DNA of 64,000 nt from Deltaproteobacteria bacterium (lineage in GTDB: Bacteria > Myxococcota_A > JAADFL01): positions 23,301-87,300 of the forward strand of contig JAADFL010000205.1 of assembly GCA_013152945.1 (NCBI GenBank). Reading direction: 5' to 3'. Positions 15,816 through 19,088 of the stretch are shown here, one piece after another. Both the position numbers and the translations under genes were made by a program. How positions within the stretch are numbered: position 1 is the stretch's first letter; the number at the start of each line of letters is the position of its first letter. The notes under the pieces are model-generated. The model had not been told where the DNA came from, did not search any database, and saw nothing but the letters and a program-made list of their open reading frames with translations.

Positions 15816-18800
15816 TCAAAACACGTTTCGTTTCCTGGCAACCAGCCCTGCAAGAAACAATAAGCCAAGGACCTGTACGGGATTGAACGATCCAGAGGAT
15901 GCATTGCACTCGCAGCCGGAGGAACCTCCTGAAGTCTTTGTCGTGCCCGTGCCCGTGCTTGTGTCCGTATCCGTATCAGTATCTGTATCAGTATCCGTAT
16001 CAGTATCTGTGTCTGTATCTGTGTCCGTATCTGTGTCCGTGTCCGTGTCCGTGTCGATATCCAAATCAATATCCAGATCCAGGTCCGAGTCTGTGTCCGT
16101 ATCAGTGTCAATATCTGCATCTGTATCTGCATCGGTGTCGGTGTCGGTGTCTGTGTCTGTATCTGTATCCGTGTCCGTGTCTGTATCCGTGTCCGTGTCT
16201 GTATCCGTGTCTGTGTCTGTGTCAACATCCGAATCGCCGCCCGGGCACTCGGTCTTGAGATTGTACGTATCCAGTTCACCGGTTGAATCGTGCTGCCTAA
16301 GCAGTTCGACAATAAGCAGGAAGTCACCGGTCTGCTGGAAAGTGTAATCGATCTTGCCGGAGTAACCGTCATCTTTCAATGGGTTTCCCTGCCAATCCAT
16401 GAGCATCATGGCCATATACCCGTCACTTACCGGGTGTTCGAGTTTGAATATGAACTCATCTCCGGCAGACGCACTAAGGCTGAAACCATCCAACCAAATG
16501 TAATAACCCTGTTGCTTGTCATAGGATTTTTCATCGATGAAATCTCCATCATAACAGTCATTGCAAGCAAGCGGATTCGGGTCCCATTGTCGTTTCGTCA
16601 GGTCCGGCTCTTTCCCCTTTTTACACGATATACAGTTGTCATCCACTATTTTATTGCAGTCATCATCTACCTGGTTGCACCACTCCTTGGCTCCGGGATG
16701 GATCTTGTATAGGTCGTCGTCGCAGTCCCGGCCTCCACACTGGTCTGAAATGAAGGTATCCTTGTCAAGGTCGCAGTCGATTGTAGCCTTCGCAACAGCA
16801 ACGGCCGGGTTGCCCGTCCCATCGTCGGGATCATCGTATTCAGCCTTTACTTCATCTCCATCATTGACCTGTAGCTTGCCGTCTGAAGAAGTCGTGCCGT
16901 AGACCAGGTCTATCTTAGCAATGAACGTGCTCGTATCAGGACCTGTCTCTTCAAGATCGATTTTCTCGGGCACCGGTTCAGTGTTACTGGAAATCTTGAT
17001 GACAAGGTGGTCTTTTTGTTGTTTGTCCGTGTTGCCGCCCGAATCCATGACAGTTGCGGTTATTTGTTCCGGGGGCCTGTACACGGCCTTGTCCAGGCTC
17101 AATCGGCCGTGCTCGTCCACCTTGATGTAATCCCTGATTTGAAGCGCGGGATCACCGAACAGGTTTATTCCGTATATGACGAAACGCATACCAATTTCTC
17201 CGATTTTATCGATTCCGGCCTCCCTGGAGGCTGCATTGGCCTCGCCGAGTCTTTTCTTTCCCTTGTTCAGCAGGGCATCGAAAAAACTCAGATCGAGCAA
17301 TTGGGACGGGGAATCATCCGGAGTAAAACCTGCCAACCCGAAACGATTGTTCATGACTGCGGCAAAGGCCCCTGCAGGTCCTGTAACCTGGTGCTCTGCA
17401 ATACAATCGTCCGGTATGGGCACGCGGTCGTTCATATTCCGTGAGGGCATGAAGATGGAGCGGTTGTCAAAGCATCCTGCATAGCAACCCTGGGAATAGT
17501 CCAGGTAGTAGTCCGCATTCCTCAATCCGTCTATATCCTTTGTGGTGATGAGCATGTTGTGGGTCTGGTCGGAGTGTCCCAGGTGGTTCAACATGTTCAT
17601 GCCCTGGTTCAATACTGAAAGAACGTCTTCAGCTCCCCACCAGTTATCTTTCTGGTACATGACCGAGACATCGAAGAAGGGCTTGTCTGCGAATACCTGC
17701 TGGTGTATCTGCTCCTTGAAGGGTTTTGCGTATAGGTCATCAGTGCCGTATTGGTCGCCGGAAAACAAGAACTCGCCGATCATCCACACCTTCTTCAGTG
17801 AATCGCCTATGGAGTCCTCGTAAGCAAGTGTCTTGCGTACAAAGTTCTCCATCTCGTTGACACTATCGACAGGCGCCCTGCCCACAAAAACCTCGGAGAG
17901 CAAGTCAACGTCACCACCATCGTCTCCATCGTTTGCTTCTCCATACTTTCCGTTGGCATTACCATCAAAGGTGCCGTCGAGGTTGGAATAATAAAGATCC
18001 GATGCACTGTAATCTCCCTCGCTGTCGCCAAAATCAGAGAAAAAATATCTTGCCGGTACGAGAACGTCACCGGATTCGCCGCCTGCATCGCCGAAGTCGG
18101 CGTCACCACCGAGCAGCACGTACCTTGTGTTCCAATTCGTGTACGCGTCCTTGATGAAATTCCTCACCCTTGTTGCATCGTCCGAATCACCATCGGGTCT
18201 CTTGCCGTCATATTCGTTCCTTATCCACTCCATGGTCACGACTTTGCCACGGAGCCCCTCGCTGGTCCTCTTATCGGCCAACGCCTGAAACGTGTGATCC
18301 CCGTCTTCCGAGGCCAATGCCTCTGTCGTGATGATTACATATGGATAATCACCCGGTTCCAGGGATGTATAGAGCGACAAAGGGATCCTGGATAGGCCTG
18401 GATACGATGCCGAGTCGGACGGATTCAGGACCTGTTTCTCAACCAGTGCCCGGTCTTTGGGAAGGCCCGAGTAACCTGCATGCAGATCCGTATCCGGCTT
18501 GTTTGTCCGTGCCAATTCCACTTGTACGTCGAATTTTGCATGAAATCCGAGTTTGCCGCTCGATGGATTATACTCCACCGGGTAAAGCCTCAAGACAAGG
18601 ATTCTATAACCTCTCATGATATGCACGCCCAGGTTGTCGAAATTACGGCCGGGATAGGGCTGCAACGACGAGTAAACAGATGCATTTTCCCTTGGAACCG
18701 GCATTACCATTCCGGGCATTATCGGCACGGGCTTGGTCGCCGGGAGAACCTTGTGCACTCCGGGCAACATGGTCGTCTTGTCTGACGTGACCTTGATGCT

Positions 18801-19088
18801 AAAAGGTGCTTCGCCGAAAGGCACGAGCAACTTCACGGTTTTTGCAGGTAGCCTCGGCTCACCGGCCAAGCCGTATGTGCTACATCCCGGAACCTTTACA
18901 AGTTCATATTTCCCTATTTTTTCAATAACCGGCGGTCCATCCATTTTTACATTGAAAACCATGTCTGGGTCACCGGCCGCAACCAGGGAGCCGGGAAGAA
19001 AAATCACTGAAAAAAGGAAAACAGCAGGAATTACGATCAGGCGCAGACGAAAAAATTTGTTCAAAGCACACCTCCAAGCAAAGCGCAC
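15816..19088 (-). CDS. Clan CD gingipain-like (C25) cysteine peptidase with Cys/Asp-rich repeats, PPC-like domain, TD-repeat linker and Cys-motif C-terminal sorting signal
   Basis: ORF of 1090 aa with a signal peptide. A 'LNHLGHSD' His and, about 30 residues later, a '[12 protein letters not shown]' Cys match the C25 His/Cys dyad spacing. Contains CxxxDxD-type Cys-rich repeats. About 95 aa of DTDTDT. The C-terminus is 'GCECNASSG' + hydrophobic transmembrane segment + 'RKRNVF'. Confidence 0.7.
15950..16240 (-). repeat. (GAYACN)n-type hexanucleotide tract encoding (Thr-Asp)n in the peptidase gene
   Basis: The plus strand reads gtatccgtatcagtatctgtatc and similar units. This yields TD repeats on the minus strand and SV/PY/LC artefact ORFs in other frames. 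Confidence 0.85.

Follow-up and report, generated by a model that had tools for sequence, protein, structure and literature searches.

How would a peptidase of the gingipain family be held at the surface of a bacterium if the signal at its C-terminus is not that of a T9SS (type IX secretion system)? This question is raised by a gene in a 64-kb stretch of contig JAADFL010000205.1 (GenBank assembly GCA_013152945.1, positions 23,301 to 87,300 of the forward strand; hereafter the window, in whose coordinates all positions are given). The gene encodes a protein of 1090 residues, referred to below as the C25 protein, in which an initial annotation had recognised a C25 cysteine peptidase with a Cys-containing tail; its extent, 15816..19088, was given there exactly, and the gene is on the minus strand. 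We consider it likely that the product is the secreted zymogen of a clan CD cysteine endopeptidase, which an uncultured deltaproteobacterium would display on its outer surface by means of a C-terminal tail of the MYXO-CTERM class. This reading draws on analogy with characterized sorting systems.

Catalytic domain, prodomain and fold

The N-terminal and catalytic features of the C25 protein are as follows.

15816..19088, minus strand: whole open reading frame (ORF) of the C25 cysteine peptidase precursor, 1090 residues from GTG, stop codon included
19062..19064, minus strand: probable true start, TTG at codon 9, giving a product of 1082 residues
18975..19088, minus strand: Sec-type signal peptide, residues 1-38, with a basic n-region and a hydrophobic core; helix at residues 9-26 in the model
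18489..18971, minus strand: gingipain-type N-terminal prodomain, residues ~40-200, from PF08126, Kgp 5mun, and Foldseek matches to 4ief_C and 5mun; predicted local distance difference test (pLDDT) above 90
17139..18341, minus strand: Peptidase_C25 catalytic domain, residues 250-650, from PF01364, a Foldseek match to RgpB 1cvr and a profile alignment with 1cvr
17574..17576, minus strand: catalytic His505 in NHLGHSD; its counterpart is His444 in Kgp (chain residue 216) and His211 in RgpB
17484..17486, minus strand: catalytic Cys535 in YSQGCYAG; its counterpart is Cys477 in Kgp (chain residue 249) and Cys244 in RgpB
16779..17120, minus strand: Ig-like beta-sandwich right after the catalytic domain, residues 657-770, with model strands at pLDDT 60-86

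Membership of family C25, proposed in the initial annotation, is borne out by profile search. The Pfam model PF01364 (Peptidase_C25) matches residues 250-650 over its whole length (model positions 1-373 of 374; E = 4.3e-55, 187.9 bits against a cutoff of 23), and PF08126 (Propeptide_C25) matches residues 62-198 (E = 4.4e-08, 32.9 bits against a cutoff of 22). The catalytic dyad had been placed in the motifs LNHLGHSD (residues 500-507) and YSQGCYAG (residues 531-538), and both positions hold. A pairwise HMMER alignment to Kgp (4tkx/4rbm) sets His505 on Kgp His444 and Cys535 on the second Cys of NCC, which is Kgp Cys477, while a profile of 54 family members puts the same two columns on His211 and Cys244 of RgpB in 1cvr (E = 3.5e-14). 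These four gingipain residues are what we take, as established knowledge of the gingipain structures, to be the published catalytic ones. Both His505 and Cys535 are conserved in at least 90% of the alignment of 54 C25 family members, as are Asn501, His502, Gly504 and Glu439. The distance between His and Cys, which had been judged compatible with the family, is 30 residues here against 33 in RgpB and Kgp, and the alignments accommodate this with gaps of two residues and one residue between the two positions.

The fold points the same way. An AlphaFold2 model, with pLDDT mostly above 85 over residues 40-655, fair values for residues 660-770 and no information for residues 774-1090, has RgpB 1cvr as its top match in a Foldseek search of the PDB (E = 1.1e-20, template modelling (TM) score of 0.65 on the target, ~16% identity). 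The prodomains of RgpB and Kgp (4ief_C and 5mun) are matched at E ~1e-9 and the MALT1 paracaspase more weakly (E ~6e-4), which agrees with the caspase-like clan CD fold that had been predicted. The Ig-like domain shows 38% identity to the same position in the homologue P0001 and weak matches to S-layer Ig domains; Pfam yields no match over residues 655-770. Because the model and the Foldseek results match both RgpB and the RgpB/Kgp prodomains, the C25 protein is, as modelled, a zymogen laid out like a gingipain, in which the prodomain, presumed to confer latency, comes before the catalytic domain and the Ig-like domain after it.

The order of signal peptide, prodomain, caspase-like domain and Ig-like domain is thus common to the C25 protein and to the Porphyromonas gingivalis gingipains RgpB and Kgp (MEROPS family C25, clan CD). 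Apart from the low overall identity and the His-Cys loop, which is three residues shorter, the C25 protein differs from them in its C-terminal half. It is without haemagglutinin/adhesin domains and without the T9SS C-terminal sorting domain, for which neither Pfam nor NCBIfam gave a match; a MopE motif, a domain like the pre-peptidase C-terminal (PPC) domain, a Thr-Asp (TD) stalk and a Cys-x-Cys (CxC) tail are found instead.

The start codon of the gene is probably not the first one in frame. When the sequence is read directly, GTG at 19088 has no Shine-Dalgarno sequence. Since TTG at 19064, eight codons later, has GGAGG upstream at a spacing of 6 nt and GTG is without a ribosome-binding site, TTG is the preferred start. 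Residue numbers in this text are those of the 1090-residue (GTG) version. The features of a Sec signal are present with either start, and the likely signal-peptide cleavage site would lie between VAA and G.

The C-terminal tail and its relatives

The C-terminal tail of the C25 protein has two counterparts in the window.

15819..15932, minus strand: MYXO-CTERM-like tripartite tail of the C25 protein, residues 1053-1090, composed of SGCEC, a hydrophobic helix and RKRNVF, and aligned with the tails of P0249-P0256
20157..22712, plus strand: S8 subtilase NOZ88036.1, divergent from the C25 gene and 1 kb off, with an acidic linker and the tail GGCGC...LLLLVGLFLLLPAF-RKIRERRER
61009..63597, plus strand: beta-lactamase-like/Big_9 protein of 862 residues with a (TD)n stalk of ~105 residues, a small Cys-rich knot and the tail SGCGC...FLLMLFGISIFIG-HKH

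The last 38 residues of the C25 protein combine a Cys motif, a helix without charge or Pro, and an Arg/Lys cluster, so that the tripartite architecture is present. We built a hidden Markov model (HMM) from ten other CxC tails, leaving the C25 tail out. With this model, the C25 tail obtains 18.1 bits and the best of 5000 shuffles 9.9 bits, and it matched no unrelated tail among the ~300 other ORFs of the window. The succession of GCEC, transmembrane helix and RKR that had been read as a sorting signal is therefore present, and the different sorting system that had been suspected behind it can be named as a Cys-containing tripartite signal of the MYXO-CTERM type. A CxC motif of the form G-C-[GE]-C followed by a transmembrane segment and a basic cluster occurs in three of the ~45 genes of the window, namely those for the C25 protein, the S8 subtilase and the beta-lactamase-like protein. 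On the strength of their tails, the latter two would be the second and third clients of the sorting signal of the C25 protein. A gene for an FHA-domain protein (NOZ88035.1; 19458..19850, minus strand) sits between the C25 and S8 genes.

MYXO-CTERM signals are described as having an invariant Cys, often within GCGC, a helix without charge or Pro, and an Arg cluster; they are strongly divergent by lineage, such that custom lineage-specific HMMs are needed (Haft preprint). In Myxococcus xanthus, proteins of this class such as TraA and MXAN_4924, which depend on MrtX and the type II secretion system (T2SS), carry the same tripartite tail at the extreme C-terminus with a disordered linker ahead of it; the disordered region and the surface-sorting pathway were reported by Guo, Haft and Wall 2025. 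As in MYXO-CTERM systems, several clients are found here in one genome region. The C25 protein differs from these proteins in having GCEC rather than GCGC, in scoring below the cutoff of the MYXO-CTERM HMM, in its C25 cargo and in its source, a 'Deltaproteobacteria' metagenome-assembled genome (MAG) of ~51% GC. Peptidase cargo has a precedent, since NCBIfam already holds a family of myxosortase-dependent peptidases, the M36 metallopeptidases. For protease cargo, the closest functional analogy is VesB of Vibrio cholerae, which is handled by the GlyGly-CTERM/rhombosortase system: a protease with a tripartite tag that is cleaved at the inner membrane, receives a lipid-type anchor and is taken to the surface by the T2SS. 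That system differs in its GG motif, in its rhomboid sorting enzyme, in acting on a serine protease and in belonging to another lineage.

The initial annotation had set the tail of the C25 protein against the role of C25 peptidases as T9SS cargo in Bacteroidota. The anchor does differ; it is not exceptional, however. Tails with a Cys-containing tripartite structure occur in at least five of the best 120 C25 homologues (P0001, P0002, P0009, P0013 and P0015), and named sources among these 120 are Thermoplasmatota, Methanotrichaceae, Bathyarchaeota and Omnitrophota. Environmental C25 peptidases from Thermoprofundales, Bathyarchaeota, Omnitrophota, Methanotrichaceae and others are 30-39% identical to the C25 protein across prodomain and catalytic domain. 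Like the C25 protein as proposed here, they are exported multidomain proteins and are thought to degrade detrital protein. Besides GCGC tails, the anchors of such homologues include SLH domains, dockerins, PGF-CTERM-like helices, and BACON or CARDB arrays. To judge from their sequences, non-T9SS anchors on C25 domains are the rule in environmental genomes and not an oddity.

A candidate display cassette

Between the Ig-like domain and the tail, three further features make up the C-terminal half of the C25 protein.

16623..16778, minus strand: Cys/Asp-rich region, residues 771-822, with a half-motif and one PF11617 motif, its Cys invariant in the cassette alignment
16245..16568, minus strand: PPC/collagen-binding-like beta-sandwich, residues ~841-948, from a second AlphaFold2 model, Foldseek and transitive homology
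15963..16220, minus strand: (Thr-Asp)n acidic stalk, residues 957-1042, 86 residues with 43 x-Asp dipeptides, predicted disordered

The claim of multiple Cys-rich repeats resembling calcium-binding ones stands in part. The Cys/Asp-rich region is real, with nine Cys within residues 771-845, but it holds only one PF11617 motif (Cu-binding_MopE, 'putative metal-binding motif'; residues 788-817, positions 16638-16727; 36.8 bits against a cutoff of 27, full model 1-30) and a half-motif ahead of it. We take it as a disulfide-rich motif of the MopE type whose metal binding is putative.

A PPC-like beta-sandwich had also been claimed, and it is supported by fold and transitive homology, not by a direct Pfam match: PF04151 (PPC) does not match residues 830-958 at E<=10. 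Because the first AlphaFold2 model was uninformative beyond residue 774, a second was built on the cassette alignment, and it shows a beta-sandwich at pLDDT 80-95 over residues ~841-947. Its best Foldseek matches in the PDB are collagen-binding domains of ColH and ColG together with 5sv5, a 'pre-peptidase C-terminal domain' from a collagenase of Bacillus anthracis (TM 0.70-0.73, E = 5e-6 to 4e-5). A phmmer query with the domain matches seven tandem stretches of P0250, a protein in which Pfam calls seven PPC domains, and the phmmer stretch at 798-865 coincides with the Pfam PPC stretch at 798-864. Identity to the ColG and ColH domains is only 14-16% at a TM of ~0.7 (ColH s3, ColG s3b and 5sv5), and the domain of the C25 protein has its own conserved Cys pattern with a preceding MopE motif; any binding of collagen or Ca2+ by it is putative.

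Relatives of this part of the protein are few. A word-indexed homology search with residues 767-955 returned no matches, and when residues 836-955 were compared exhaustively by HMMER with 1.84 billion representatives, 17 relatives only came back. In six of them (P0248, P0249, P0251, P0252, P0254 and P0256) the cassette is present in full, with 34-37% identity: the end of an Ig-like domain, the MopE motif, a domain of ~110 residues, an Asp/Gly-rich linker, and then G-C-x-C with the hydrophobic helix and Arg cluster behind it. Across the cassette alignment, seven Cys are invariant. In P0256, which is complete, the enzyme region at the N-terminus does not belong to C25, which argues that the cassette is modular. 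The recurrence of Ig-like domain, MopE motif, PPC-like domain, acidic stalk and CxC tail suggests a portable display cassette, and this is the sole mildly new point of the analysis, along with a hint that sorting by Cys tails reaches into an unclassified lineage of deltaproteobacteria. We hold only tentatively, as a possibility that may well prove wrong, that the C-terminal half is an undescribed portable cassette for surface display which an uncultured lineage of deltaproteobacteria, beyond the Myxococcota and Bradymonadales described so far, has grafted onto different hydrolases (C25 here, an unrelated non-C25 enzyme in P0256 and P0248). In P0256, P0248 and P0251, the cassette is joined to a non-C25 N-terminal region without a Pfam match that starts ...PCSIFAANDGPL.

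In the stalk, Thr accounts for 34 of the 43 x-Asp dipeptides. The array of hexamers that encodes it is degenerate, with mixed codons (GAT 22, GAC 21, ACA 14, ACG 13). This mixture argues for selection on the stalk peptide rather than recent slippage, with copy number uncertain in a MAG assembly. In profile searches, the (TD)n repeat matches Ser-Asp (SD) repeat regions, the kind that forms the stalks of staphylococcal Sdr and Clf adhesins; the dipeptide here is Thr-Asp, not Ser-Asp, and by analogy the stalk probably has the same role of a spacer. TD stalks occur in two further proteins of the window: ahead of the Cys tail in the product of 61009..63597, and right after the lipobox Cys in that of 120..1580 on the plus strand. 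The latter gene encodes a predicted lipoprotein of 486 residues with the lipobox AFSNC, a (TD)n stalk of ~75 residues directly after the Cys predicted to be lipidated, and a Cys-rich C-terminus; it would be an N-terminal mirror image of the C-terminal arrangement of stalk and Cys anchor. Long ORFs at 15712..16347 (plus strand), 15788..16372 (minus strand, other frame) and 15899..16258 (plus strand) were rejected as genes. With 211, 194 and 119 residues and compositions that are poly-VS, poly-TQ/IR and PC/LY-rich, these antisense or out-of-frame ORFs on both strands of 15712..16372 merely shadow the TD repeat in translation.

Proposed route to the surface, rival readings and genomic setting

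How the C25 protein would reach the outer surface can be outlined from the model for M. xanthus, which has experimental support (Guo, Haft and Wall 2025; Haft preprint), and from which every step given here is inferred. The Sec system would export the zymogen, and the C-terminal helix would retain it in the inner membrane with RKR toward the cytoplasm. A Cys of GCEC would be lipidated, as is presumed in the source model, and a myxosortase of the CPBP family, encoded elsewhere in the genome, would cleave the helix off. The T2SS would then carry the protein, folded and anchored by its lipid, across to the outside of the outer membrane. In that position the enzyme would be spaced from the cell surface by the TD stalk, and polymeric substrate would be bound by the PPC-like and Ig-like domains. 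Proteolysis would be switched on once the prodomain is removed, and would serve to harvest extracellular protein together with the S8 neighbour, which has the same type of tail.

Several observations weigh against this reading. The NCBIfam model for MYXO-CTERM, TIGR03901.2 (cutoff 20 bits), matches neither the C25 protein nor its isolated tail, in which Glu replaces a Gly of the consensus. No gene for a CPBP/myxosortase protein or for the T2SS lies within the window. The host bears only the label 'Deltaproteobacteria bacterium', and MYXO-CTERM is documented only in Myxococcota and Bradymonadales. In the catalytic domain, pairwise and profile alignments disagree over residues 439-463 on the equivalents of RgpB Glu152 and Asp163, so that Arg or Lys specificity is not to be assumed. 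The acidic S1-pocket residue of RgpB is not evidently conserved in the C25 protein, and Glu439, nearly invariant in the family, may have a catalytic role. Other tails score on TIGR03901.2 at 24.4 bits (P0251, above the cutoff), 19.7 (P0009), 19.3 (P0252), 16.8 (P0015), 14.0 (the S8 subtilase) and 13.7 (P0013). On its sequence, we file the C25 tail as a divergent relative of MYXO-CTERM that would act like it, and not as a member that passes the threshold. The only small multi-pass ORF of the window (27496..27948) was considered as a CPBP candidate and set aside; it has no Pfam match. The loci of the homologues P0013, P0002 and P0009 have no neighbours in common with the C25 locus and no sorting enzyme. 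The lack of such an enzyme near the C25 gene or its homologues would be expected of a housekeeping sorting enzyme encoded elsewhere.

A simpler account takes the tail as a plain C-terminal anchor that leaves the C25 protein in the inner membrane with type I topology, facing the periplasm, and involves no lipidation, cleavage or surface export. The missing sorting enzyme and T2SS genes in the window and the score of the tail below the TIGR03901 cutoff speak for it. An anchor alone, however, needs no conserved Cys-x-Cys, yet this motif is invariant in the three window proteins and in all cassette homologues, some of which pass TIGR03901. The long acidic stalk, the substrate-binding domains and the latency prodomain suit an extracellular enzyme, and a degradative protease of 1000 residues would be hazardous inside the periplasm. 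We judge this account unlikely. It is improbable, too, that an undescribed lineage-specific enzyme other than a CPBP myxosortase sorts the C25 protein and that the likeness of GCxC to MYXO-CTERM is convergent. Cys-containing signals of four distinct types have been described, and every type has an enzyme to itself, but all four of these tripartite signals use enzymes of the CPBP family (Haft preprint). The sub-threshold score would also fit such an enzyme, as would the distant relation of the lineage to others, seen in the selenocysteine synthase SelA encoded beside the C25 gene, whose best relatives are 55-61% identical with none closer; the tails of the cassette homologues, on the other hand, grade continuously into genuine TIGR03901 matches.

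A different kind of alternative makes the C25 protein a sorting enzyme itself, a PorU-like transpeptidase with the task of processing other surface proteins at their C-termini instead of degrading protein. Among NCBIfam models, those for PorU, the T9SS sortase (48.9 bits), and PorU2 give weak matches, and the family profile matches PorU 6za2 at E = 1.8e-4. The PorU score is nonetheless far under the cutoff of 420 bits, RgpB and Kgp are much better matches in both sequence and fold, an inhibitory prodomain of the gingipain type is present, there is no T9SS context, and the C25 protein is itself a client of the sorting signal. All this makes a PorU-like role very improbable, and a secreted, surface-displayed zymogen remains the reading that we prefer.

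The surroundings of the C25 gene, in a window of ~51% GC, contain further genes of interest. The gene for SelA (NOZ88033.1; 14333..15766, minus strand) lies 49 bp downstream on the same strand, with no terminator-like site between the two, and its presence implies that the organism uses selenocysteine. Promoter and terminator scans gave signals no higher than shuffled expectation. A further flanking protein of the locus has an identical NCBI entry, NOZ88037.1 (locus tag GXP49_17610); like the entries for SelA, the FHA-domain protein and the S8 subtilase, it comes from a single contig of 92,656 bp. An exact look-up of the C25 protein with either start gave no entry, though the order of accessions makes NOZ88034.1 its probable one. 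An exact 45-mer of the gene had no match in GTDB species genomes, where a search with SelA gave only a Chloroflexota protein at 27% identity. Farther away, 5484..11075 (plus strand) encodes an RHS/teneurin-type YD-shell protein of 1863 residues with NHL repeats and CarboxypepD_reg, in a region with a local GC of 0.60-0.63 against ~0.51, and 39303..44312 (minus strand) encodes a protein of 1669 residues with ~10 PKD/K319L-like Ig repeats and He_PIG domains. Genes for DUF58, VWA and membrane proteins stand in a row at 45002..52897 (plus strand) and resemble an operon of the Bat/aerotolerance type. The product of 57302..60304 (minus strand) is a fusion of 1000 residues that joins an N-terminal PilZ domain to a full Hsp70/DnaK; a small ORF at 60400..60798 (minus strand) has an N-terminus (...AERVPFY...) resembling that of the fusion.

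A full-text search of the literature found no paper that pairs gingipains or C25 peptidases with Myxococcota. The pairing of a C25 peptidase with a tail of the myxobacterial type thus seems not to have been described before; as a new combination of familiar modules it comes as no surprise, and current understanding is not overturned by the C25 protein. It is a clear example of a gingipain catalytic unit reused outside Bacteroidota with a lineage-specific anchor, and it suggests that in uncultured deltaproteobacteria degradative proteases are among the cargo of the recently characterized myxosortase/MYXO-CTERM pathway. The case is also of use to annotators, since divergent GCxC tails are overlooked by TIGR03901 and picked up by a small HMM made for the lineage. 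In White Oak River estuarine sediments, C25 peptidases make up >40% of the peptidase genes with signal peptides, and they were already known in Thermoprofundales and Bathyarchaeota; surface-tethered C25 and S8 enzymes would fit the view that C25 peptidases drive the degradation of protein in sediments. If the C-terminal half is indeed a portable cassette, sorting by Cys-containing tails of the myxosortase type would be phylogenetically wider than documented, and the organism would bear on its surface an armoury of proteases on stalks, C25 and S8.

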